DNA of 64,000 bases, from assembly GCA_026026165.1 (NCBI GenBank), contig JAPEUD010000016.1, positions 186,001 through 250,000 of the forward strand, written 5' to 3'. The notes under the pieces were generated by a model. It had not been told where the DNA came from and did no database searches. It was given only the letters and a program-made list of their open reading frames with translations. The position numbers and the translations under genes are program-made. The stretch comes from Sarea resinae (lineage: Eukaryota). Below, piece after piece: positions 10,816 through 50,248 of this stretch (position 1 is the first letter of the stretch; each line of letters begins with the position of its first letter).

Positions 10816-10914
10816 CGATGCCTGTGAGATTCGAACTCACGCGCCCGAAGGCACGGGCTATCAAAGAATTGATAATTTAGCAGGCCCGCGCGTTAACCAC
10901 TCCGCCAAAGCACC
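10816..10914 (-). tRNA. tRNA-Ser(GCT) with an 18-nt canonical intron at 37/38
   Basis: GGTGCTT TG GCGGAGTGGTTAACGC G CGGGC CTGCTA[intron]A GCCCG TGCCTTCGGGCGC GTGAGTTCGAATCTCAC AGGCATC G; long variable arm; downstream T-run terminator. Confidence 0.95.
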
Positions 10915-11074: not shown

Positions 11075-13320
11075 ATGTTTTCTGTGCTCTATTCGATAGC
11101 GCGCCCTACGCCCAGACTCCATTCTACATTTCGTCCTCTGATCCCATATCTCACATGGACATCTAATCGGCCGCGCAAAGTGCCTACCTCAGCAATGACA
11201 ACCTCCGCGCTCAATAACGTGGAGACCACCTTCGCATCAATCAGCGACGAGCCAAGAGCCGGGCAGGCGGTCAGTCATGTGGGGAAAAACTACACCACTA
11301 TCAAGGAGGGATTGGCGTATATTCTAATCCCCGAAAGCGCTTCTGCCGTGCCAGAGAAGGAGACGGAAAAGGCCGAGGGGGAGACACAGCAGCAACCGCA
11401 GACGGTCTTTTACAATCCCATTCAGCAATTCAATCGCGATCTTAGTGTTTTGGCGATAAAGGCGTTTGGGGAGGAGGCTGTGGCGCTGAAGCGGCAGAGA
11501 CGGGAGCATCGGGGTCCACGGAAGAAGAGCAAGAAGAGAAAGAGGGTTGACGCTGAGGGCGCAGAGGACGTGGTAGCTGAGGAGCAGGGCGCCGCACGGA
11601 AGAAGACAGACTCGGGCTATTCGGAGGTTGGGGAGAATACAAATGGGTCTCGAAATGAATCCGGGCTCGTGGCAGCGGGGCAGGAGAATACAGACGCTGG
11701 AGGGACGGAGACATTACAAGAGGGTTCTGCACAACCTGAACCCACAACAGCGGAGGCTGTCAATTCTTCAACAAACGGCCAAGGCGCCGCAAAGGCTTGG
11801 CAACCTCCATTCCGGATCCTGGATGCGCTTTCCGCTACGGGCTTGCGAGCCTTGCGATACTCCAAAGAAATACCGTTCACGACCTCCGTCACCGCAAATG
11901 ATCTGTCTGCCGCCGCGACTGCTTCGATTAAGCTCAATGTACAGCACAATCGCGTTGAAGAAAAAGTCGTTCCTCTTACTGGAAATGCCCTAGCACACAT
12001 GTACAGCTTCGTGGGCCAGCCCACAGAACATTCTTCGGATACTAAAAAGTACGACGTTATTGATCTAGATCCCTACGGCACTGCGGTACCCTTCCTCGAT
12101 GCCTCAATGCAGTGTCTGACAGATGGCGGACTGCTATGCGTGACATGCACCGATGCCGGCGTCTTCGCATCTACTGGCTACCTTGAAAAGACCTATGCTT
12201 TATATGGTGGACTGCCGATGAAGGGACCTCACTCACACGAAGCCGGGCTACGCTTAATCCTCCAATCCATTGCGACGACGGGAGCGAAATACGGTTTCGC
12301 CATTGAGCCGTTGCTTTCCCTGTCGATTGACTTTTATGCTCGCGTCTTCGTCCGCGTCAGACGATCTCCGGCGGACGTCAAATTCTTGGCTGGCAAGACG
12401 ATGATAGCATATAATTGTGATTCTGGCTGTGGCGCATGGGCGACTCAATTGCTGGCACGAAATCGGGCCAACACTGCCAAAAATGGATCCACATATTACA
12501 AGCATACCGTGGAACAAGCACCGAGCGCAGGGCAACACTGTGAGCACTGCGGTCACAAACGACATGTAAGCTCTGAGATCGAAACATTGGCATGGATTAT
12601 GACTGATATGTATAGCTCGCGGGACCTATGTATGCCGGCCCATTGCATTCTCCCGCCTTCATACAGCGCATCCTCGATTCTCTTGCTACAGCCGATACCA
12701 CGACGTATGCCACGACCGACCGTATCGAAGGAATGCTCCAGACGGCTTTGGAGGAAGATCTTTCGCTCTCAAGCTCGGACACCAGCGCAGACCAAGGAAA
12801 TGGTGCCGCGGAACCGGACGCAGCCAAGATAGACCATCACCCATTCTTCTTCATCCCCTCGGCCATCTCGAAAGTGATCCATTGTCAGACGCCGTCGGAG
12901 GAGGCTATCAGAGGCGCATTAAAGCACCTGGGCTACCGGGTTTCCAGAAGCCATACGAAACCCGGCAGTATCAAGACCGACGCACCCTGGGACGTCATCT
13001 GGGAGATAATGCGAGAGTGGACCCGTCAAAAATCTCCCATCAAAGAAGGTTCTATCAAAAAGGGCACGGCTGGATGGGAGATCATGTACAGCCACAATGA
13101 TTCCAAGTCTGTAGATAAACGTGCGTCGGATATAGCTGCAGAAGGCCCAACGCGGGAACAGCCAAGCGAGAATCTGGAGCAAGGTGCGCCGGCAGAAGCA
13201 GCAAGGTTAAACGTGGTCTTTGATGAGAAGCTGGGCAAGATCAAGGCCGGGAAAAGGCTGGTCCGCTACCAGCTTAATCCGAGACCGAATTGGGGTCCGA
13301 TGAATCGTGCCAAGAGGTGA
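11075..13320 (+). CDS. TRM1: tRNA (guanine26-N2,N2)-dimethyltransferase, 2 exons (intron 12566-12615)
   Basis: VFYNPIQQFNRDLS, ILDALSATGLRALRY, DVIDLDPYG, CxxC..CEHC, KTDAPW, RYQ.NPRPNWGP. A GT-AG intron joins ORFs 11075 and 12628. Confidence 0.95.
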
Positions 13321-29658: not shown

Positions 29659-31494
29659 CTTGATATGGACTAGGAGATGCAAACAATGAGTAAGTGATTC
29701 AAACAATTGTAAAGTAAGCCAACGAATGGTTTTGAAGAATTGTTTTGAGAATTGAGATACTGCTAGGGACTGAAAAAGCGAGGAGGGCGAATAGGGCAGA
29801 TATACTACGCTGTCCCCAGGTATCTGGCTCCTGCCACACGCTTGACCCACACCTTCCAAAGCAGTCCTAAACGGACCATACTTTACCCATTACATCTATC
29901 AAAGCACTTCCATTACCTTCCGTAGCAAACTCCATTTGCAGCTGCTTCATGTCCACGGGTGCAATCTCACATGCTCGATGTGACTTCCCCATGGTCTCTT
30001 TTCAGAAGCGGTGAGCTTTTCCCGCTGTTGCCGATCGAGGCAAGCAGTGACTTGAATATATGCAGGGAACGTGCAAGAAAAGACAGCTTCGAAGACGAAA
30101 CACAAACAGACAGAAAACGTGAAAAATCACTTGTAGAAGGGATGCTCTTCTCTTATGACACGGGATAGCATCTTTGGCTAGTGCAGGATTGCTGGACAGC
30201 AAACAGTCTAAGCACGTTTTGAAGAAATTACCTACCACTCGAGGGACTCTACTGCCAGTGTCACTCCCCACTTGTCTGCATCTCCAAGCATGGGCCAAAG
30301 CTCTTTCCCAAATGAGTAGATACGCCTACAGGCTTAACAGTACGAGGATCGCGAAACCAAAGTTCCAGCGCACATGACATGCTTCTGGAAGCAGGCCATA
30401 TCCATGGATCCATGTCCATCTCCGTCACTACAGAGCCGACGTCCCTATTCAACTGAGCAGGAGGCACTCGAAGTCAGTAAGCGGGTGTAGCATGGCTAGT
30501 GCGAGGACTTTGAGCCAAGCAAGCGGCGAAGCATTGGATATAAAGAATAAAGAGCACAGTGCCGCAGAGGAACGCAGGGCATCGATGCGCAATTGACGCT
30601 AATAGACAGAGGCGCGCAGGTGCGAGCAGGAGATTAGAGACTACCTATGAATGAAGGTGCGTGGCAACATAGTCAGAGCCGTACAGACGACCAAGGCATT
30701 CACTTGCAAGATGTAGCACATAGATCTTCGCCGAGTACATATTCACACACTTCCCCTCCGGAAGCTACACGACCATCCTCACTAGCCCTCCCTAAGGTGC
30801 AAACAATGGTAAGTGGTACCACTATTGAAATGATTATGCAAATTTTACAAGCAAAAAAAAAGCTGCAACTAAAACACCATTAATAGCTTGCGTAGAACCC
30901 ATCTTTGTTTCTGATTTTATGAATCATATGTCTGTGGAGTGTTCGAGCATCGCGCCGAGTTCATGCTTTAGTAGCCTCCTAGACTCTCTCGTAGCGGGCA
31001 CATTGAGGATCCACAGAGACTTAGCACGAGTGAGAAGAGCGACAAGTCTTAGAGATAGGTGGTACTTGATTTAGGATTTACGTCTTGAAATCCATGGCCT
31101 TTAGAGTCTTGCAGATTGGCGTGCAGAACCTGAATTCGATGAGAGGAAGGGTTGAGAGAAAGGAGCGGCGTTGTTTCCGAGGTAAGACTGTTGATTGAGT
31201 AGTCGATCTGACTAATTGCCATAAAATGCTTAAGGTAGGAACGGAAATGCAGACATGAAGTACTTCGTACTTTGTACTTATAGTACGATGGATAGTGAGA
31301 GGATACTTCCAATAGGCTCTTAAGATTACCTAGGCACTAACTCTATTCAATTTAAGCGACTAGCCGCGGACGAAAATCTTGGAACGCACCAGATAGACTC
31401 ATACTACTCACTCATAATTACGCGTTCACAGGCCGCATCCGGCTCTCTTTCAAAGCTCTATAGTGTATCTAAAATGTAGATCTTTCAATCAAAA

Positions 31495-31612
31495 GCCTCT
31501 ATAGCTCAGTGGTAGCAGCGCGTCACTAGTACTTTCCTCATTTGGAATGAACACTTTCCTTGATAGTGATTAGGCAATGACGAGGTCCTCGGTTCGACTC
31601 CGAGTGGAGGCA
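31495..31612 (+). tRNA. tRNA-Thr(AGT) with a 45-nt intron (31532-31576)
   Basis: GCCTCTA TAGCTCAGTGGTAGCAGC G CGTCA CTAGTA[intron]A TGACG AGGTC CTCGGTTCGACTCCGAG TGGAGGC A, followed by TTTTT. Confidence 0.93.
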
Positions 31613-33036
31613 ATTTTTGGGTTCCTTCCTTTTGTACTTTGCCTTTCAGTATTCGCAGCAATCTTTTTTCTTTTTAATACCGGGGAAGACTGCTCTTGTC
31701 TCTTGATTTATCATACATTGCAATACCTTTTTTATCTCACGATAAAGCCAAGGCAAGAGGACACCGAGTTCAATCGATATTTCCGTTATCAACGCTATCA
31801 AGGAAAGTACGGGATATCTGTCGACTTTCGACTTTGACGGTTAATGTACGCAACCTCTATCCCTTGCCTCCTGTTCCTGACTCAAAACCGCTTGAGCTTA
31901 CTTGAATCAAACATTGCTTTCCAGGCTTTCTCTACGTCTGGCCCGAGACCTACCCGGACGCTTCGATATGTTACGGGGCCCGGAGAAACGACAGAGCTGT
32001 CTTCCATCTAAGGATTCATGAGCTGTTGATTTACCCTTTCACTTTCCAGACTTCATATACTGTGCATTGGAGGAGACTAGATGTCTAGATATTGTATCTG
32101 AGTGCGTCAAGCTTCTTTCTGCCAGCTCCCATCGTTATGCTACGTGTAAGTGCAGAACGTCGTATCGATTGCAAGAACAGACGCCGCCAGCCGCCGCTTC
32201 CAACCTTGCACGCGCCCACCCGGAAAAGTCGCCGCCACCTCCGGCCTCGAATTCGCAAGAGCTTTGCGTTCGATTCTCGATATGACCATTTCTTAGATGG
32301 TGCCTGCTCTACTTCGAGGAACTGCTGGGGGAGGACGTTACGCCCACACTGAAGAGCCTTGCCTTCCATCGAATTTCCATATTCATTCGTTCATCCTGCT
32401 TAATTACACTGGAACCTTGGAAGGCAAAAGACGTCATCATAATTCTTCGGGAGTAACGACCACCTCAATGAGGCTTTGATTGCATGACTCTTGAGTACAA
32501 ACTCTGTGTGGCTTTACGTTTATGCCTTCCACTCTCCATGTCAATTTCGGTTCTATCTTACTCGAAAGACTCTCGTTTGCAATACTCCTTCTTTGCCATA
32601 GTTATCACGTTGCTTTACGTCGATGCCGTCTTCCGCGACTCGGCTCGTGTCTCTTTCCTCCTACCCTCTCGGTCCCCCAAGGCCATCATCTACACTTTCC
32701 GATCTATCCATTTCCATCTCCATCCCCATCCCCACCTTCAAGCTTGCCCGCATACGCTCCCCCAGTTCCCTCGTCTCATCTATCCATACCTTCCAATCTC
32801 TTCGGCCCTATCCCCCACTTCGAACCCCTCCGCACTCCCAAATCCTCCCCTCATCACCCTCACCCACCATCCTCCCATCCATACCTTCCGAATTTCTCCA
32901 TCTCCTACTTCCACAAGATAATATCATGTCGTAATGCAATCTCGAGTGAACCGTAGACAGTCGTAGGTATAAATATCCCCGTCCCGCCGCTCGGTTTTCC
33001 ATCTCTTCTCTAGATTTCCTAGATCGTCCGAACCAG

Positions 33037-33880: not shown

Positions 33881-34706
33881 GAGGCTCGAATGACGGAACA
33901 CTTTTTGGCAGTTATTTTTGGGGATCGATAGTCTGAAATACCATTGCTTTATTGCTCATTCGCTATCATGTGCTACAAGTGACCTGAATGATCTATATGC
34001 TACCAATGAATCTACTAAGGACTTTGATGATTCTATCTTGTGCTTCTTTCTCAGCGCCTTGAGTCTTCGACCATGTCTCCAGATTCAGGAGCAGGGGCAT
34101 CATCACCTCAGCCTCTCTCGTGGTTGCGTTGTATAGATAAAATCGAGACTGAAGCATATCTGTCGAACAAGCGGGAGATGCCTTGTCTTGCGAGGGGCCA
34201 GAGAAGGCTTGCTTCAGCATCGGTTCGGCGTTCATCTCTTTCATGGTGGCCTTGCCCTCGAATGTCTCATGACTCTAGACACCGCGAAGGGCAAAGCGAG
34301 ATCAGACAGCAACCTATAGGAGAACGAAGCAGTGGTATATCTCTAAGGTGGGCTTTCTCTCTCAATCCAGTTCCTTTTGATCTTAAGTAGAAAAGGGGTT
34401 GCCGGTAGGTATATACTTCGGAGTAGACTAACGAGAGGGCAAGCAGAATAGGTAGACAAGAAAATTGCGGCATATATATAGAGCAGCACCTGATATCAAG
34501 CTATATAATTGGCACCGCAATCCCTTAGGATGTTCTCATATCATATTGTCGTAAGGATCTGTAGAACAGGGGCTATACCGCATCGGCATTTCTGAATCTC
34601 CTTTCCGTCAAGGAGCCTCATCCATTGCATCACCTTAAGCTATGCATGAGCAAAAAAAACATGCGTGAGTGCAGCGAGCACAAGAATAATGGCAGGCAAA
34701 AGCAAG

Positions 34707-34824
34707 TGCCTCCACTCGGAGTCGAACCGAGGACCTCGTCATTGCCTAATCACTATCAAGGAAAGTGTTCATTCCAAATGAGGAAAGTACTAGTGACGCG
34801 CTGCTACCACTGAGCTATAGAGGC
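34707..34824 (-). tRNA. tRNA-Thr(AGT) with a 45-nt intron, identical to the copy at 31495-31612
   Basis: Exact reverse complement, including the intron. Confidence 0.93.
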
Positions 34825-35175
34825 TTTTGATTGGAAGCCCGACGAATTTTGCGTGATTTATTCCAAAGAAACTTGGTGGTGGAAAGTTTCTCCTGAGCTG
34901 ATAACCCCTGAGCTGTCAGTGTGGGGCGGGCTTGGTAGGGAACTCAAAAAAGGGTACTTTCGCTTAGACAGCCAATCCTCTATGCTGATTGTCGAATTAA
35001 GCTTGACCATCGTTACTTTAGCTTAGTGAGCATTTAGCGAGGGTACCTAGCTACGGAGTACTTCGCCCACGAGAGGGCTCTCGAAAGTATCATCTAAGCA
35101 TTATCACAAACATTGCATGTCAGTTCACCGCCAGTCGTGGCAATCCAAAGTTCTCTATGAAATTCCTATGAGAGG

Positions 35176-41357: not shown

Positions 41358-42463
41358 GGTCGATAGTTGTTGAAAAACAGTACCATTTCTCAATGAAAAA
41401 AGTATTGCTGGCAGACAAGAGTTGAAATGTTATCTTCCATCTCAAGCCAAGGCCATACGAGAGATCGAGAGTAACACCAAAGCCGGCTAACAGGTATTTC
41501 CAAACCAAACGAATCAGGGCAGGTACACGCACGATCAACGACGCCTATCATGGATGACAGGAAGAAACGCGAAAAGAACACAAAAAGGTCCAAGAAATCC
41601 GATATCGCTGTGGATGCACGACATTGATAGGCTGCGTGGATGATGCAGGTGGTAGGAAATCAGTGAGCACATCATCGCTTTCTCCACGCACCTCATCCCG
41701 CTTTCCCAAGCACATCACAGCCCCTCACCCCCATATCCCATATCCGCAATCCTACCCGCTCCTCCCCACCTCCATTCCGTAGCCAGGAGAAACGGCCCGA
41801 CTGAAGTGAGGAGATAAGGATGTTCTGGACTGTAAGAGCAAGGAAGTCGGGGTTCGAGTATCCAGACGGAAAGATTTGGCATGCTTGTACGGGATTGCGC
41901 CATTGCGAGGGTGCGATTGTCTGATATGAAGGGATGGATGTTGGGGGGGTGTTGATGAGAGATTAGATGAGATGAGATTGAGATAAGATGTAGATTAGAT
42001 CCTGCCATCCACATGTTTGACAACTGTCATCATCCCGCCAGCCCCTTTGTCTCTAGCCTTTCTACGAATTCAACCATAGGTCACCGTGTCTTCCAGACGG
42101 CTGTATCTCCTCATACCTATCCTCGTACTGTGCCTGTCCTGTGCCTGTCCTGTGCCTCAACTGTGCCTCACACTGTCTTCCCACACCATGTCTCATACCG
42201 TGTCATCTTCTACATGTCTCATACCGTGTCATACCGTGTCATACCGTGTCATCTTTTACATGTTATACCGTGTCATATCAAATGTATTCTGAATCTCCAG
42301 CCGCGCCCCTTTTCGTTGACGACTTTCATATCCCATCAAAGCTTTGACGTTCATTATCAAAAGATATAGCATATTGAAACCTTTCCTGTTTGATCAGTCA
42401 TCGTCTTGACAAGAACAGACAGACAGTCCGAGACAGCTTGCCTATAGTCTCATCACCAGTGAA

Positions 42464-43951
42464 ATGCCTGGGTTGCTCGACTGCCCCAACGAGCTTCTTG
42501 AGCCCATGTTGGAACCAACGTCGAAGCGTGATCTCCGTGCTCTGGCTTTGACCTGCCGCCTACTCTACGACCTGACGAAAAAGCCCTTGTATCAGAGTAT
42601 ATCTTTCTCTACACCTGTACAACGCCGACCGTGGAGGCTGAGAGACGACAACAGCTCTTACTACCACGCCCTACTAGAACATCCTGTACGATATGAACAC
42701 TTTTACCTCTTTCTCAGATCTCTAGAGGAAAACACTACCCTTGGCGTCCTCGTCCGCATCATTCGCATATGGTTCGAGTCCTCGCCTGACCCGAGTGAAG
42801 TGGGAGCTCTCCATCCTCTTACTGGGGAGGAAGTGTTTGCTCATTTTTCAAGCGCACAACATCTCTCAAGGCCTGACGTTACCCGACTGATGAGATCCGT
42901 TCCACTGCTGCGCGTTCTCGATTTGTATATTGGAAGCGGTAACCATAGAGGATATGTTCCTCCTTTTTCGAAAATCCTCCCTTGGAACGAACATGACGTT
43001 CCTCCGTTGCAAGAGCTCGATCTTCTAGGAAATACTACGGGTTTACCTCCGCAATTCTTTTGGATGCCGACAATCAGGAAAATTAAGGTACATTATCCCC
43101 GGTGTATATCTCGGATTCCAGATGGCAGAGAGCCCTTTACGTCTCCAGTAACATCCCCAGCATTGACAGGCGATGACTGGGACACACTCCACAGGATTCT
43201 GACGTGGCCTGCTGCTCTTGAAGAATTCACTTACTTGGGCGATGCGATTTCCGGTAGACTTTTCTCTCGTTGTCTTGAATGCCAGTCGGGTTCCTTGAAA
43301 CGCCTCGAGATTGGCCTGCACAAGGGCTATCACCGACCCCTCTACGACCTACGACCTTTTTCAAAGCTTGAACATCTTGCCATCTGGCCCGATCTATTAT
43401 TTCGTCTGCCGTTCTCCGATCGTAATCCAACTGCTGCACTTACAAACGAAATAGCTAGTGATCCATGTCTTGAATTTCCGCCGCACGTGGAGTGTCTTCA
43501 GATCACCAACGGGCCCAACAGGCTGTACTTTAAGGATTACGTAGAGGGAGACGAATTGGACCTCTCTTATAAATGTTCGATTGAAGCTCTCCTCTGGCTC
43601 CTGAGACTGAGCCACCAACAACTGAATCTTTAATGCCTCAAGGTCGTTCCCTTTGGAAAGGGAGTTGCTACAACCCCTTGGAAGCCGCCACCTGCCGTTG
43701 TCCAAGATTTCGAGATGGAAGGCCTCGCGCTTGAAGTTGGGATTCCGGTGGAATCAGAATATTTGCGCTCCTCCAATGAGCAAGTATTCAACAGGCTCCC
43801 CGCCTTCCAGCCGAGACCACCGCCACGACTTGACTTTACATTCATGGGTATTTACTTCCCACTAGGAGGACTTTTGACTTCTGCAGCAGAGAACATGGCC
43901 CGTCTTTTTATTCACATTTGCGTTTTCTTGGATCGAGTTTGGTACCATTAA
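42464..43951 (+). pseudogene. F-box/LRR-like protein with a premature in-frame TAA at 43631-43633
   Basis: LLDCPNELL...DLRALALTCRLLY F-box. The frame after the stop (PWKPPPAVV..GLALEVGIP) still matches the downstream paralogue. Confidence 0.7.
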
Positions 43952-44128
43952 TCTTCGTCCTTTACATACATTCACGGCGCACAATTCACGGGATCATGAG
44001 GCAGCATGGCCCTGTCAACCGAGGCCATTCAATTTTATTCTGCAGTGATCCATCGTCGTCGAATCTGGCCATACACACCGTCTCAATGTTCGTTGTTCCT
44101 TTGCTCACGTCAATATTACCAAATCACA

Positions 44129-45502
44129 ATGGTCGGGATATTCGACTGCCCGGACGAGATCCTCGAGGCCGTCATTGAACAAGTTGCTCTACCTACACCG
44201 ACCCGGGAGCACGATCTCTGCAGCTTGGCCTTGAGCTGTCGCCGGCTCTGTAGCGTCTCAACGAGCTTTCTATATCAAGATGTGTCCTTTTCAACACCCC
44301 CAGAAGCTTTCAGCATGCAAAACATTTACCATTCCTCACCGGACCATTTCCTCGCCTACGACCGAATACACCTCTTTCTGAGAACTCTCGACGAGAATCC
44401 TGGCTTGGCCGTACTCGTGCAGAATATCCACATCTGGTACTGTGAGAGGTCGGAGACCGAAAAAGGAAGACACCATACAGATGATGGTCCAAGCTGGGTG
44501 GCCGACATCAAGCACCTTTTGCAACTGGTTCCAAAGGTGCAAGTCCTCGACATCTATACTGACCCCGGGATCAACCCGTCAATCTTCACGGATGAGCTTT
44601 CTGTCGCCGAAGCCCTCTATTCCGAGACACCCTTCTCCTTGGCCCGCCCCTGGAACGCTCAGACCTTCCCTTGGCTTCGAGAGGTGAGATTTGCGGGAGT
44701 CGGGGCCGCCGTGGCAGATTTCCCCATTGATCTGTTTTGGAGCCCCAAGGTCAGAAGAGTAGATTGGCTCTGCTTCCCAAAGACCAAGAGGCGACTCCAG
44801 CTCCCTCCGGGCAAGAAGCCTTTTACGTCCCGGGTAACATGCCTCACAATGTGCCAACAATCTCGCGAAGAGGATGAATGGACAGAGGACCTCCGCGAGC
44901 TTTTGACCTGGCCTGCTGCCCTTGAAGAATTCACCCACTTTGGTTCGCAGTGGAAGGCAACGACCCTCTGTCGGCTTCTCGAACCCCACTCTAGCTCGTT
45001 AAAGTATCTGGACCTGGGCAACTACTGCATGACCATTCTCGACCTGAGCCAGTTTGAAAACCTCGTACACTACACGACCTGGGCCTCTTGTCTCCTGGCA
45101 TCTGTCACCGGTTACGACTTCTTTGGTATTCTCATTTGGAATTGGCCCCCATGTCTGCAGTGCCTCCAGATCAACAACTGTAAAGACATGCTCAAGTTTG
45201 AGCACTTTCCCTACAACGATGAGGGGCCGGCTCGTTTTGACACGCCTCTCGACCGTTCGAGCAGAGCGATTTTGGACGTGATCCGGCGCTCAAGGATCGG
45301 AGCGCCCCATCTCCGGCGAATTCTTGTCACTTGTTTTACCTGGGACGATCCTGATGTGACGAGAGAGCTCCTTGTTCCCTGGAGCCCGCCCCCGATCGTG
45401 GTCAAAGCCTTGGAGGATAGTGGAATCGTTCTGGATTTGGATATACCGCCAAAGGCTGTAACAAACGCAGACGCGTTGGTGGAAGAGACCGAAGAAGACT
45501 GA
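44129..45502 (+). CDS. F-box/LRR-like protein, tandem paralogue of the 42464 gene
   Basis: IFDCPDEIL...DLCSLALSCRRL; shares PFTS.VT, LTWPAALEEFT and LQI.N with the upstream copy. Confidence 0.8.
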   Translation: MVGIFDCPDEILEAVIEQVALPTPTREHDLCSLALSCRRLCSVSTSFLYQDVSFSTPPEAFSMQNIYHSSPDHFLAYDRIHLFLRTLDENPGLAVLVQNIHIWYCERSETEKGRHHTDDGPSWVADIKHLLQLVPKVQVLDIYTDPGINPSIFTDELSVAEALYSETPFSLARPWNAQTFPWLREVRFAGVGAAVADFPIDLFWSPKVRRVDWLCFPKTKRRLQLPPGKKPFTSRVTCLTMCQQSREEDEWTEDLRELLTWPAALEEFTHFGSQWKATTLCRLLEPHSSSLKYLDLGNYCMTILDLSQFENLVHYTTWASCLLASVTGYDFFGILIWNWPPCLQCLQINNCKDMLKFEHFPYNDEGPARFDTPLDRSSRAILDVIRRSRIGAPHLRRILVTCFTWDDPDVTRELLVPWSPPPIVVKALEDSGIVLDLDIPPKAVTNADALVEETEED

Positions 45503-45857
45503 AGAAGACACGACGACCAAGTGAGACGGACCCAAGCTGTCCGAGAGCAGATGCAGAAGACGGTTCCGAAGGAGACTCAGAGACAAACCCCTCCCATCGT
45601 CTTCTCCCGAAACACCTCATCTCATTCCGAAGCCTCGATATCACCAAATCCTCTTCCGCACCATCATCTCGATCCGGTAGATCAAGAGTTCAACTGGCGA
45701 ACACTAAAAGCTTGTTATCACCTTTCCTTTTTCATTCATTTTCCCTGGTCTTTCTCTTCCTCTCCTCTCCACACACATCTCCTTCCACGAGCTAGCCCAA
45801 TGCTTGCTGTTTCCACGGCGCACGAGCCAACCCGCTCAGACTAGCCTAAGCAGCATC

Positions 45858-45937
45858 CTTTTCTTTTCTTTTCTTTTCTTTTCTTTTCTTTTCTTTTCTT
45901 TTCTTTTCTTTTCTTTTCTTTTCTTTTCTTTTCTTTT
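45858..45937 (+). repeat. (TTTTC)n microsatellite
   Basis: Directly visible. Confidence 0.95.
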
Positions 45938-46453
45938 CACTTTCTTTCCCTTTTCTTCCCTCTCTATATCCCTCTATTCTACATGTCAAACCAGCACTGC
46001 AAGTGCCAAGACAAGCAAAGACTACGAGTACAGTACAGTAGAGCATACACTAGCTCATAAATAGAAAAACAGAAAACAGGCTTCTTCACGCTTCCTCACT
46101 CAAGGCCGATAAATAACTACACTTAGGATTAAGCACCAGCACAAGCACTAGCACCTAACTGCCTGAGTGCCTAACCCAATAATCTAATTAAGCGACCCTC
46201 CCCAAGAAAACAACCGACTCCCTAATTCCTCTCCTTGCCCTTCCCCCCCCCGCCTCCACCCTGGCTAAACTCCCTAAGTATACCCGTAACCCTTACCGTT
46301 TCCGCCCTAACCCACCTCAAACCAGCCCCCTCACGGTGCCTAAAACCCCGCCCGGCGCAGAGAAAAAAAAAAGCCACACACAACACTCTACCCTACCTCG
46401 CCTGTTAGAAACCCCCTCTTGATCTCCCAACCAGCGCACCTGTCTCCGTTCCA

Positions 46454-46686
46454 GGCAAGTTGGCTGAGTGGTTGTGAGTCTCTCTTCCCTCTCTTCCCTC
46501 CCTATCCTCCCCACCCCACTCCACCCCAACTCGTCCTATTCGCTCCCCCTTTTCGCCCACCACCACACCGCCACCAATCCACACATCAACTAACAACGAA
46601 CTCAGAAAGCGTACGCCTGCTAGCCTACTACTAGGACAGTTAAGCGTATGCCTTCGGGCGCGTGAGTTCGAATCTCACACTTGTCG
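46454..46686 (+). tRNA. tRNA-Ser(GCT) split by a 132-nt spliceosomal-type intron in the D-loop (46474-46605) and a 20-nt canonical intron (46623-46642)
   Basis: Exons 46454-46473, 46606-46622 and 46643-46686 join to GGCAAGT TG GCTGAGTGGTTAAAGC G TACGC CTGCTAA GCGTA TGCCTTCGGGCGC GTGAGTTCGAATCTCAC ACTTGTC G (81 nt, all stems pair); T-run about 11 bp downstream. Confidence 0.88.
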
Positions 46687-47498
46687 AACGACGACTGTTT
46701 TTGGGGGTGATTTTTGGTGCCCGAGTATTTTTTTAGTGTTTTCGAGCTCTAGGACTAAGGGAGAGAGAGGGGGGGAGAGAGAGAGAGAGAGCACAAGAGG
46801 CTGCTAAGGGAGATGCCTTGTAGCTGTTGAGGTGGGAGAGCGGGCTGAATAGCGGGCGAAAGAGCGGGGCAGAGAGATAGTATAAAACCCCTAGGTGTAG
46901 AGGTAAGGGTAGAGCTAGGGATAAAGCGCGATGTAAAAGAGGAGAAGCGAGTTCTTGTGGAGTCTTCCTTTCTCTTCCTTATATCTTTCTTTCCTTCTCT
47001 CTTCTTTGCCAGAGCAGAGGAGGGAAGAGGGGAGGTATTAGTGATAGCAGGCAGGTAGGTCAGGGTCTCTAGGGCCTTTTATATCTCGACGGACTTTTTA
47101 GTTTCGCTTTCAGTCTATCTCGTGAGAGATTTCCGTGTCTAGGGTTGTCCAAGTCCGGATGGATTTCTTGCGCATGGATAGAAAGAACGGAGAGAAGAGA
47201 AGAGACGAATTACTCGCCACGCTGTACTATCTTGCCCAAGTCTTCAGAGATGGATCCAAATGGTAATTCGTTTATTGTCAAGTGGAATAGAAAGTAACGT
47301 CTAAATAACCAGCCAACCAACGAGCCAAAGACTGCCATCCCAGACAGAGAAAGAAGAAACGCCATAAGAAGAAGAGAGAAAAGGAAAACAACGATAACGG
47401 CGAGGTAATGTCGGACTGTTCCATTCTAGATTAATGTGACTCCATGCTGCCCCTCCATTCCTTTCCCTTGCCCTGAGCCGAAAAATCCAAACGCCCAG

Positions 47499-50248
47499 CT
47501 AAGCGACCACGACACCACCGCCCTGCCTCTCTTTCTCTCTTTCGCTCTCCCTCTCCTTTTCCTGCTCGGCAACACGCGCCCCCTTCTTTCCATCCGCATC
47601 CTCATCGTCGTTCTCATCGACAGCAGCAGCATCCTTGACACTAGTCGGGAGGTCAAGCGATGTGCTGGTGAAAGAAGTGTGGGCGCGAGTGCTGGACGGG
47701 GTGGCCTGCTGGATGCCTCTGTTGTGAAGGCGATGGGAGAGATAGCGATAGATGGCAAAGTACTGCTTGCGGCCGTCGATGAGCGGATAGAAGCCTGCGA
47801 TGAGCAGCGTGGCCCAGAGCCAGATTATGGCGACGATGAGCCAGGCCGTGTAGAACTGGGATGAGCTTTTAGTTTTGTTTTCCGTGGTTCACGAGTTCTC
47901 TAGAGAGCGTGGAAGAGGGAGGATTGTGACTTGAAAAACATTCGAAAAGACGGGCAAGAAGCAAAGCTCAGCAAGACTCACCTTTTTGGAAAACACAAAC
48001 TTTGCTGCATACATCGGCAGAGGCCACAGCACCCAATGGCCCAGAAACGTGGCCACGGCCCAGATAGCCGCAATCTTCGCCCAGTATTTCATTTTCCGCC
48101 GGCCCTCGGGGTCCCTCAATGGATGCAATTCCCTTTCAATCTCAGCGACCGATTCCGTCGCCGTCTCTTCGACCTCAAAGGCAAGCCGCTGCTTCTGAAA
48201 CTCTGCCCAGTCATACCGCTGCGGTTTCAGCAGCGTAATCACCACCGTATAAGGCAGCGGCGAAAAGGCGGCCGCCACGGTGCCGTACATGCAGGGCAGC
48301 ACCTCGCCCGTCGAAGAGACGGTCACCGCACCATAAAACGCATACGCTGTGCTGAGCCAGACTGCAAGACCCGTGGCCATTCCCAGCACGGGCGAGATGA
48401 TGGCTGCTGCTTTGGATTGCCGACGCCAAAGGATGGTGAGCGTGGTGGGAAAGATGCCAGGACAGGTAATCACTCCTGGTCTCATGTGTTAATTGAAAAT
48501 AGATTAACAAATTGAGAAAAGTACCTAGCATATACAAGGTCCAGCCCAGATCGATACCGACATAATGCAACATGGTACTGAATGCGGCGGCGAAAAGGCC
48601 AAAGAACACGACCCCATAGTGGCTCCAGCGAATAATGTCGGCATCCGAGGCCCGTTTGTTAAAATAGGTCCTGTAAATGTCAAAGCTGATGATGGAGCTC
48701 ACGGCAATCACCTGCGCAGAGATGGTCGACGTCACCGCCATAAAGGTGATGAGCAAGACGCCTGCTGCGCCGCCTTTCCCTGCAATAGCTATGGCGGCGT
48801 AGGGTAGGACTAGGCCGTTGCTGACTTCGGTCGAGGACATGCGCTGAGAAAAATGGTCAGAAGGAACGATGTAAAAAAAAAAAAGACGGGCTTACTCGTG
48901 GGTATGTGGGGAAGATCGGGTTGTTCTCAAGCCCGAGCACGACGGAGCTCATCACGGTGCCTAGGGCCCAAGGGATCGCAAAGTATGCGACTCCGCCTAC
49001 GATATAGCCGGGGACTACGGCCGAGGGAGACGCCGAGAAGGCCTTGATGAAGAAGCTCGTATCCATAATCACGAGACCAAAGTTGGCGCAGATATGGATG
49101 ATGCCGAAGAGCATACCCTGGCCACGTTAACATTAACTCATAAAGTGGAAAGAGGGGCTTGCCTCTTTCGATGTCATTGTCAGGTAAGATCCATTGTGGT
49201 TACCGGCGACGGGATGTCGGGTGGAAGCCGCGGCGACCAAATCGTAGAGGTGCCCGATCGATCCAATCTCGTTGGTGGTAAACGCTTTGATGGTGAAGAA
49301 ACACGCTATGATGAGAATGACAAAGGTGTGGAAATAGTCGGTGATGAAGCTATCTCTGTCAGTGCTTGTTTGAAAAAGGGGTCGGAGTCCCATACGTCGC
49401 CTTGATGCCCCCCACAAACGTATACACAATCACTCCGATTGGAAGTAAGAACGTAGCTGCAATAATATGCATGCCGGTGCTGGGCATTGTCAGAGTGCTT
49501 TGATCTTGAAGAGGCGTTTGACTCACAGTGCGGAGATGGCAGCAGAGGCACCAAGAAGCATATTGGCCACGGCAAACAGGTTATTCAGGAGGCACAGAAA
49601 CATGTAAACAAAGTGGGCGGTGGTGCCTATGGACAAAAGGTCAGGGTCTGCTCCTCTCATCCTGTCTCGGACTGATACGGACCATAACGTATTTTGACCA
49701 TCTCCAACGACGTGTGTGCTTCGGGAATCTTCAACTTGCACGCGATGCCCAAGACGGCGAAGAAGACAATCATCGGGCTGCAGCCAGCGGCAAACCAGAA
49801 CGGGCCCGACACGCCGTAGTTGTATCCGACCAAGGACGAGCCGAGCATTGCGGTGCTCCACAGCCATGACTATCAAAAATAAGAAAGGAATTCCATCGAG
49901 GAAGCAAGCCACTGACCGAGATGACGGCGGAGGTGGTCAGGCCAGTGCGGACATTTCGGTTGGCCGTCATGAACCTGATCGATGTCAATGCTATTCGGAC
50001 AGCTAACTAAAGCCTTACATTTCCGTCTTCTCATTGTCCTCGCCAACGGTGCTTTTGAGCAGCTTCGTGACGAATACCATGCCTGGTTCCATGTTAGTGA
50101 CGCATTGTGATCCAAGACCGAGCAGCAGACCAAAGGCGATGACAAGCCCAACGACGACAACGACGACATAGCCAACGGCTTGCGAGAGAGGGGGCTTGAC
50201 GGAATTGATGTAAACATGATTGTCGGCTCGAGCGTGCAGCAAAGACAT
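47499..50248 (-). CDS. DUR3: Urea/polyamine active transporter (sodium:solute symporter family), multi-exon
   Basis: PPLSQAVGYVVVV, FMTANRNVRTGLTTSAVIS, YGVSGPFWFAAG, GGIKATFITDYFHT, GNHNGSYLTMTS, GLVLPYAA, LWPLPMY. Confidence 0.88.

Follow-up and report, generated by a model that had tools for sequence, protein, structure and literature searches.

A Probable U2-Type Spliceosomal Intron in the D-Loop of a Nuclear tRNA-Ser(GCT) Gene from Sarea resinae

Introduction

Can a nuclear tRNA gene carry a spliceosomal intron? The question is raised by a locus of the resin fungus Sarea resinae (Ascomycota, class Sareomycetes, Pezizomycotina), in which a class II tRNA-Ser(GCT) gene is interrupted in its D-loop by a 132-nucleotide (nt) insert with the signals of a U2-type GT-AG intron, and in addition holds a short tRNA intron at the usual site of the anticodon loop. 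The locus is part of a metagenome-assembled genome (MAG; GenBank GCA_026026165.1), and the analysis covered a 64-kb stretch of it, called the window below (contig JAPEUD010000016.1, positions 186,001 to 250,000).

The interruption had been described in an earlier annotation made from the letters of the DNA without database searches (the sequence-only reading), which knew of no established spliceosomal intron in a tRNA. Literature searches agree with this statement: full-text searches, covering mostly the open literature with subscription journals mostly outside their reach, gave no report of a spliceosomal intron in a tRNA gene. Textbooks and recent specialist texts alike hold the types of nuclear intron to be unrelated. 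In a 2025 paper, the three nuclear intron types are called "completely unrelated" and spliceosomal introns are assigned to transcripts of RNA polymerase II (Pol II) (PMC12530127), and the word stem "spliceosom" is absent from the main text of a review on tRNA introns (PMC4090602).

The results described below suggest that the insert is probably a genuine U2-type spliceosomal intron of a nuclear tRNA-Ser(GCT) gene, whose removal by the spliceosome would yield a working tRNA.

Results

Structure of the interrupted gene

On re-reading the sequence, the coordinates and motifs given earlier for exon 1, the GTGAGT donor, the ACTAAC branch-site motif, the CAG acceptor and the 20-nt intron all hold (Table 1). 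The insert has a donor of the form GTRNGT, a CTRAY branch motif near its 3′ end and a YAG acceptor, as U2-type introns do. Its borders cannot slide, since the bases differ on both sides of each junction: the last exon base is T against G as the last base of the insert, and at the second border the first insert base is G against A as the first base of exon 2. The gene ends with a discriminator G at 46686.

Table 1. Positions of the interrupted tRNA-Ser(GCT) gene, its parts and signals, its ordinary paralogue, and the second inserts of two comparator genes.
Feature	Position	Strand	Remarks
tRNA-Ser(GCT) gene, class II	46454..46686	+	Interrupted after nucleotide 20 by the 132-nt insert
Exon 1	46454..46473	+	20 nt; 5′ acceptor strand, U8-G9, 5′ D-stem strand, D-loop bases 1-8
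A-box-like TGGCTGAGTGG	46461..46471	+	In exon 1
D-loop insert, U2-type GT-AG spliceosomal-type intron	46474..46605	+	132 nt
5′ splice site GTGAGT	46474..46479	+
Branch-site motif ACTAAC	46589..46594	+	Motif end 11 nt upstream of the last intron base
3′ splice site CAG	46603..46605	+
Exon 2	46606..46622	+	D-loop end, 3′ D-stem strand, position 26, 5′ anticodon-stem strand, anticodon loop to A37 (GCT)
Canonical tRNA intron at 37/38	46623..46642	+	20 nt; 1-nt sliding ambiguity; placed at 34/35 by ARAGORN
Exon 3	46643..46686	+	Position 38, 3′ anticodon-stem strand, long variable arm, T-arm, 3′ acceptor strand, discriminator G
T-arm	46662..46678	+	Contains the B-box-like GAGTTCGAATC
Pol III terminator-like T-runs	46698..46734	+	T5 at 46698-46702, T5 at 46711-46715, T7 at 46728-46734
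Ordinary paralogue, tRNA-Ser(GCT)	10816..10914	-	Only an 18-nt intron, at 37/38
Second insert of L014	L014:497-547	- (of locus)	51 nt, GTGAGC..CACTAAC..CAG; 5′ strand of anticodon stem (29/30)
Second insert of L002	L002:454-502	- (of locus)	49 nt, GTAAGA..GACTAAT..AAG; T-loop (57/58); 256-kb contig

The promoter elements are present on either side of the insert. The A box is intact upstream of it, as had been noted, and the T-arm contains a B-box-like element, with a distance between the two of about 190 base pairs (bp). The T-runs were also described correctly, as the longest one inside the insert is T4, at 46550, and those of terminator type begin past the gene. With A and B boxes, a downstream T-run and no internal terminator, the locus has the predicted make-up of a type 2 gene of RNA polymerase III (Pol III).

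Excision of the insert in silico

The tRNA-finder check that the sequence-only reading had proposed was carried out with ARAGORN on the sequence from which positions 46474-46605 had been removed exactly. A single 81-nt class II tRNA was obtained. ARAGORN's choice of 34/35 as the site of the 20-nt intron makes it label the tRNA Asn-GTT; with the canonical 37/38 placement the anticodon is that of Ser-GCT. When the 20-nt intron was removed as well, all 20 stem pairs of the cloverleaf (20/20) were standard. Every stem is paired, the variable arm is long and the discriminator is G73; a long variable arm and G73 are marks of serine tRNAs.

The ordinary paralogue in the window is the natural reference for this product. 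The D-loop, the variable arm and the T-arm are alike in both genes, as is the total length (81 nt), and the pairing bears out that exact GT/AG excision restores the D-arm, the D-loop and the length of the paralogue. Eight two-sided compensatory changes, none of them disruptive, separate the genes in their acceptor, D and anticodon stems, and the two copies can be told apart by their stems, as had been anticipated. Since these stems are distinct from those of the paralogue, the product of the interrupted gene is directly trackable.

Detection by standard tools and chance expectation

The prediction that standard tRNA scanners would pass over the gene was borne out. Default ARAGORN called no tRNA anywhere in the window, and Rfam at the gathering threshold recovered three ordinary tRNA genes and not the interrupted one. 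At a permissive threshold, the Rfam model RF00005 matched only the 3′ part of the unspliced genomic sequence, with 14.5 bits versus a gathering score of 29, and the intron mode of ARAGORN made a wrong call on the same unspliced sequence (Ser-ACT with a 143-nt intron). A scan for split tRNA genes was applied to both strands of the window; its pattern was a T-stem of 5 bp enclosing a TTCRANY-like loop, plus a 3′ acceptor strand, for which a complementary 5′ strand (7/7) followed by T had to lie within 700 nt. Four matches resulted, corresponding to the three ordinary tRNA genes and the interrupted gene.

From hexamer counts in the window, the frequency of GTRAGT at a given position was estimated at about 3 × 10−4, and that of RCTAAC at 20 nt or less from the end of the insert at about 4 × 10−3. 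A terminal YAG has an estimated frequency of about 3 × 10−2. Assuming independence, the joint chance of the three splice signals at the fixed borders of the insert is about 1 × 10−7. The non-random element is the coincidence of the splice signals with the break points of the tRNA.

The insert compared with local mRNA introns

The insert is C-rich (C67 T29 A27 G9) and unstructured, with a minimum free energy (MFE) of −1.09 kcal/mol and a z-score of +0.49 versus shuffled sequences. Rfam gave no match to any RNA family or intron family at E values up to 10. Strict bulge-helix-bulge geometry (two 3-nt bulges and a 4-bp helix) is not found in the window gene, and neither the MFE nor the centroid fold of the precursor has a helix bridging the insert junctions; the relaxed geometry is uninformative, as 4-bp matches arise by chance. 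No target-site duplication was found at the insert either, so the earlier statement that the gene has neither a duplication nor a bulge-helix-bulge stands. Since the insert comes without an RNA family, a fold or a bulge-helix-bulge, a self-splicing intron or an archaeal-type endonuclease intron is disfavoured.

Other identities of the insert were also considered. A transposon or repeat origin was rejected for the lack of a second copy in the window (best blastn E value 0.2) and of a target-site duplication, and a structured RNA, a ribozyme or an embedded small RNA for the lack of an Rfam match and of a stable fold. For a group I or group II self-splicing intron, no Rfam intron family was matched and the fold was no better than that of shuffles.

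The two ends of the insert are mutually complementary, bases 2-6 of GUGAGU pairing with ACUCA of the 3′ end over 5 bp (46474-46479 with 46600-46605). This pairing would juxtapose the splice sites; it is not consistent in the other six inserts described below and may be due to chance.

Nine annotated introns, mapped from the MAG predicted proteins P0001 and P0122, were taken as the local reference; they come from predicted gene models in the public annotation. Seven of the nine measure 44-56 nt and the remaining two 126 and 316 nt, so the 132-nt insert falls within the local range (44-316 nt). Their donors are GTAAGC, GTAAGG, GTCAGT, GTCCGT, GTGAGT and GTACTT, which confirms that the GTGAGT of the insert resembles donors of neighbouring protein genes. 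Branch motifs are CTGAC, TTGAC, TTAAC and similar ones, and the acceptor is YAG; in general form the local signals are GTRNGY, YTRAY and YAG. The signals of the insert are no further from the fungal consensus than those of the local mRNA introns.

One of these nine introns deserves a separate remark. The model P0122, a urea transporter whose gene adjoins the interrupted tRNA gene, omits 316 nt (49118-49433, − strand) as an intron, and this stretch is open, conserved, transporter-like coding sequence. The 316-nt "intron" is probably a mis-annotation.

Genes of the same architecture in metagenomes

Metagenomes were scanned with a 19-nt junction motif, which runs from U8 to the end of exon 1 and continues with GTRAGT. 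The motif was present at 26 loci. Four of the 26 are split class II tRNA genes (L002, L014, L018 and L020), each studied over ~0.6-1.2 kb; the other 22 have no tRNA context, and several of them are mutual copies and bacterial-looking. In a prokaryote control, the same motif gave 15 matches among 185,579 bacterial and archaeal species (one genome each), none of them (0/15) a split tRNA. No convincing open reading frame (ORF) was found in the flanks of the four comparator genes within the studied sequence, and the single ORF of 150 amino acids, in L002, had no usable match in the Atlas.

In each comparator, a complementary acceptor strand and a T-arm follow 130-200 nt downstream, and the D-loop holds a GT..AG insert at the position seen in the Sarea gene; these inserts are 51, 50, 47 and 55 nt long. 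Default ARAGORN misses all four, and none reaches the gathering score in Rfam, where L014 alone scores, below threshold, with 21.9 bits. Once the GT..AG inserts are taken out, ARAGORN recognises a tRNA in 4/4. L014 is Ser-GCT with a 24-nt intron in the anticodon loop, L020 is called Ser-AGA after excision, and L002, which has an 8-nt intron in its anticodon loop, is Ser-GCT, labelled Asn-GTT by ARAGORN owing to its intron placement. L018 is Leu-TAA, folded by ARAGORN in a 96-nt form; in our reading, a 13-nt intron at 37/38 would improve its anticodon stem. The three Ser comparators are 81 nt long after excision, with 20/20 pairs each.

Two of these genes contain a second insert of the same kind, L014 in the anticodon stem and L002 in the T-loop (Table 1). 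Both second inserts lie outside the search pattern, and their donors were not forced by it. L014 holds three introns in one tRNA gene, namely the D-loop insert, the anticodon-stem insert and the 24-nt canonical intron.

Taken with the window insert, seven inserts can be compared. In each of them an NCTRAY motif begins 15-20 nt before the 3′ end and T-runs do not exceed T4, and the acceptors are CAG in five, TAG in one and AAG in one (the T-loop insert of L002). When aligned, they have only the donor, branch and acceptor signals in common, with a mean column identity of 33%. T-runs follow within about 20 nt downstream of all five split genes. Since the exons are intact while the bodies of the inserts have diverged and the signals are kept, the pattern points to selection on exons and signals.

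A wider reading, which is on balance favoured here, is that nuclear tRNA genes as a class have been colonised by spliceosomal introns in several lineages of eukaryotes, probably fungi, at no fewer than three sites (D-loop 20/21, anticodon stem 29/30 and T-loop 57/58) and with up to two per gene beside an ordinary endonuclease-type intron.

Discussion

Points against a spliceosomal intron

Several observations weigh against the interpretation of the insert as a working spliceosomal intron. Splicing itself is deduced from the DNA sequence, and so is the need for two splicing machineries by one gene, which the deduction would entail. A loose donor–branch–acceptor pattern is not enriched in the window, where 7 candidates were counted versus 7.6 in mononucleotide shuffles; because loose motifs alone are not enriched, the argument rests on the splice signals falling on the break points of the tRNA. 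In length the insert is 2-3 times the norm for local introns, and its exon flanks, GTT|AAA, are unlike a proto-splice site. The intact tRNA-Ser(GCT) paralogue is 36 kb distant, and the interrupted copy could be dispensable.

The promoter raises a further difficulty. The spacing of A and B boxes in the Sarea gene is far above the norm for tRNA genes, usually 30-90 bp (PMC5855946). The B box of L002 is interrupted by the T-loop insert, and from −150 to +450 of the gene no B-box-like element (up to two mismatches) was found; a TATATAA lies about 35 nt upstream of the gene. The classical TFIIIC route can therefore not be common to all such genes, and for those of the L002 type transcription may be by a TATA-dependent form of Pol III initiation or by a different polymerase.

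The comparators have limits of their own. The D-loop site common to the four was imposed by the search pattern, and they are alike in architecture and not established orthologues of the Sarea gene. Runs of T5 or longer occur in 4/9 local mRNA introns (up to T12) versus 0/7 tRNA inserts, a contrast that is suggestive only, the sample being too small to argue for selection against Pol III terminators.

Alternative explanations

The main rival is a dead or dispensable copy, in which a spliceosomal intron, or a retro-inserted intron sequence, sits in a redundant tRNA-Ser(GCT) gene that has ceased to supply tRNA and looks intact because the event is recent. The intact paralogue with the same anticodon in the same window speaks for it, and the stretched A-B spacing (PMC5855946) fits it too, as does the custom of reading insertions in the D- or T-arm of one of many synonymous eukaryotic tRNA genes as pseudogenes (PMC4090602). 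Against it, all stem pairs, both boxes, G73 and the terminator have been kept, and the gene differs from its paralogue by compensatory stem changes without a single disruptive one. Four further genes, on unrelated contigs, are equally intact after excision while their inserts have diverged except for the splice signals, and L014 and L002, with two inserts each, still give perfect cloverleaves. This explanation is considered unlikely.

Less likely still is that the insert belongs to an overlapping Pol II transcript of the + strand, as an intron of a long 3′ untranslated region or of a non-coding RNA, with the tRNA pieces being exonic or the tRNA being released from the host transcript. C abounds and G is scarce on the + strand from about 45800 through the insert, and G becomes abundant just after the gene, which is compatible with one + strand transcription unit that reaches the tRNA, and L002, without an intact B box and with its TATATAA, could be read in this manner. 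But the nearest ORF of the + strand ends at 45502, about 950 nt upstream, and the splice sites match the tRNA break points to the base in five genes and seven inserts, a match left unexplained by a host transcript that has nothing to do with making tRNA. The T-runs directly after all five genes, with no T5 or longer run inside, fit Pol III instead.

It is very improbable that tRNA endonuclease and ligase process the insert as a non-canonical tRNA intron, in the manner of nucleomorphs, Cyanidioschyzon merolae or archaea, with the GT..AG borders being coincidental. Introns in the D- and T-arms are known from nucleomorph and C. merolae tRNA genes, and 20/21 is an archaeal site (PMC4090602). One of the seven inserts, that in the D-loop of L002, permits a strict bulge-helix-bulge, with a 4-bp central helix that includes two G-U pairs; one in seven is, however, about the level of chance, and the window insert is unstructured and has no such motif. 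All seven inserts have GT, a well-spaced branch motif and AG, none of which an endonuclease substrate needs, and the prokaryote control, archaea included, gave no split tRNA.

An artefact of assembly or binning is hardly credible in spite of the MAG origin of the sequence, since a chimeric join would not make perfect splice signals at both tRNA break points and the same architecture recurs in four independent contigs of other assemblies.

Proposed maturation pathway

If the insert is a spliceosomal intron, the gene would be expressed as follows. Pol III would transcribe the whole unit, directed by the intact A box of exon 1 and the B box of the T-arm, would read through the insert, where no run exceeds T4, and would stop at the T5 runs that begin 12 nt past the gene. 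The spliceosome would then recognise GUGAGU, ACUAAC and CAG, the insert would leave as a lariat, and U20 would be joined to A21, by which the D-loop is restored. The tRNA body would fold only after this step, and RNase P and RNase Z would then trim its ends. The tRNA splicing endonuclease and the Trl1 ligase would take out the 20-nt intron, and CCA addition and charging with serine would complete the pathway.

The order of the two splicing steps in this scheme has two grounds. A 132-nt insert two bases after G18-G19 should block the contact between D-loop and T-loop, so the spliceosome would have to act before the endonuclease. The same order is suggested by the endonuclease, which takes its measure from the mature domain and touches the D-arm (PMC4090602).

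Other features of the window

Two copies of tRNA-Thr(AGT) are found at 31482-31615 and 34704-34837, with anticodon-loop introns of about 45-49 nt each; they form a 134-nt inverted pair, 99% complementary, 3,088 nt apart. A TRM1 reading frame of 585 amino acids (aa) spans 11075-12832 and has 100% identity with an NCBI protein from a Sarea resinae MAG; its closest match outside Sarea resinae is 57% identical, in Xylona heveae. The urea transporter beside the interrupted gene is a protein of a Sarea resinae MAG as well.

Strand composition flips at the interrupted tRNA gene (45800-47100), the + strand being C/T-rich and G-poor upstream and G-rich downstream, and a microsatellite of TTC/TTT type lies upstream of the gene, near 45880-45990. 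The switch probably reflects the pyrimidine-rich 3′ regions of two convergent flanking genes. Further upstream, two long ORFs of the + strand, at 42410-43633 (407 aa) and 44000-45502 (500 aa), have no Pfam match and have motifs in common, e.g., LTWPAALEEFT; they look like tandem paralogues of a lineage-specific family.

Significance

If the spliceosomal interpretation is true, tRNA, the most abundant class of Pol III RNA, would join the hosts of spliceosomal introns. Splicing would proceed without coupling to Pol II, on a substrate whose 5′ exon is uncapped, 20 nt long and made by Pol III, and the gain of introns by reverse splicing could be studied in a clean, naturally occurring case. It would also bear on how far intragenic Pol III promoters tolerate disruption. 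In practical terms, fungal tRNA gene counts could then be underestimates.

The consequences would be broader if tRNA genes have been colonised as a class. Part of the tRNA supply would then depend on a spliceosome acting on Pol III transcripts, genes with a split B box such as L002 would be transcribed without the classical intragenic promoter, and current tRNA annotation would systematically miss such genes.

Comparison with known systems

Spliceosomal introns in non-coding RNAs have been described for the U6, U2, U5 and U1 small nuclear RNAs and for rRNA (PMC5855946). In position and length, the 20-nt intron of the Sarea gene fits the canonical 37/38 class removed by TSEN and Trl1, which ranges from 6 to 133 nt (PMC4090602), whereas the D-loop insert does not fit that class.

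Among tRNA introns, the nearest parallels to the insert are those of nucleomorphs, C. merolae and archaea. According to the review, non-canonical tRNA introns of eukaryotes are described only in nucleomorphs and C. merolae and are short or dependent on a bulge-helix-bulge (PMC4090602). The likeness lies in the sites, D-loop 20/21, anticodon stem 29/30 and T-loop, in the presence of several introns per gene (up to three) and in the failure of scanners to find the genes (PMC4090602). In contrast to those introns, which measure 3-24 nt in nucleomorphs and are otherwise defined by a bulge-helix-bulge and cut by the tRNA endonuclease (PMC4090602), the present inserts are 47-132 nt long, have GT..CTRAY..AG signals and show no consistent bulge-helix-bulge.

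A second parallel is provided by ribosomal DNA (rDNA). Ascomycetes, especially lichen fungi, have ectopic spliceosomal introns in their rDNA (Bhattacharya et al. 2000, as cited in PMC5855946 and PMC8527467), and yeast removes such a lichen intron from rRNA transcripts of RNA polymerase I (Pol I) (PMC8527467). Like the rDNA case, the tRNA case would involve an ectopic spliceosomal intron in a structured, abundant RNA of Pezizomycotina that is not a Pol II product. They differ in that the host here is a Pol III tRNA of about 80 nt and not a Pol I rRNA, with a 5′ exon of just 20 nt, and in that the intragenic promoter of the tRNA gene is stretched or split by the intron.

The closest system is fungal U6. 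The U6 gene of Schizosaccharomyces pombe is transcribed by Pol III, its intron is removed by the spliceosome and the B block is inside that intron; fungal U6 genes have up to four spliceosomal introns, with canonical signals and otherwise unconserved sequence, and in Saccharomyces cerevisiae U6 the A and B blocks are about 200 bp apart (PMC5855946), which is like the spacing in the interrupted tRNA gene. The resemblance extends to a small structural RNA as host, a tRNA-like Pol III promoter of A and B blocks, canonical 5′ splice site, branch site and 3′ splice site with unconserved intron bodies, multiple introns per gene at varied positions, promoter elements displaced by or lying within the intron, and reverse splicing as the proposed origin. 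On this last point, tRNA is unlike U6 in being outside the spliceosome's active site, and for this reason the proximity argument for reverse splicing fails for tRNA. The interrupted tRNA also holds an endonuclease-type intron, which U6 does not, so that two unrelated splicing systems would act on one small RNA. Splicing has been demonstrated experimentally for S. pombe U6, whereas the tRNA case is known from DNA alone. With these differences, the insert of the Sarea tRNA gene would function in the manner of the fungal U6 spliceosomal introns, with a host RNA that is new.

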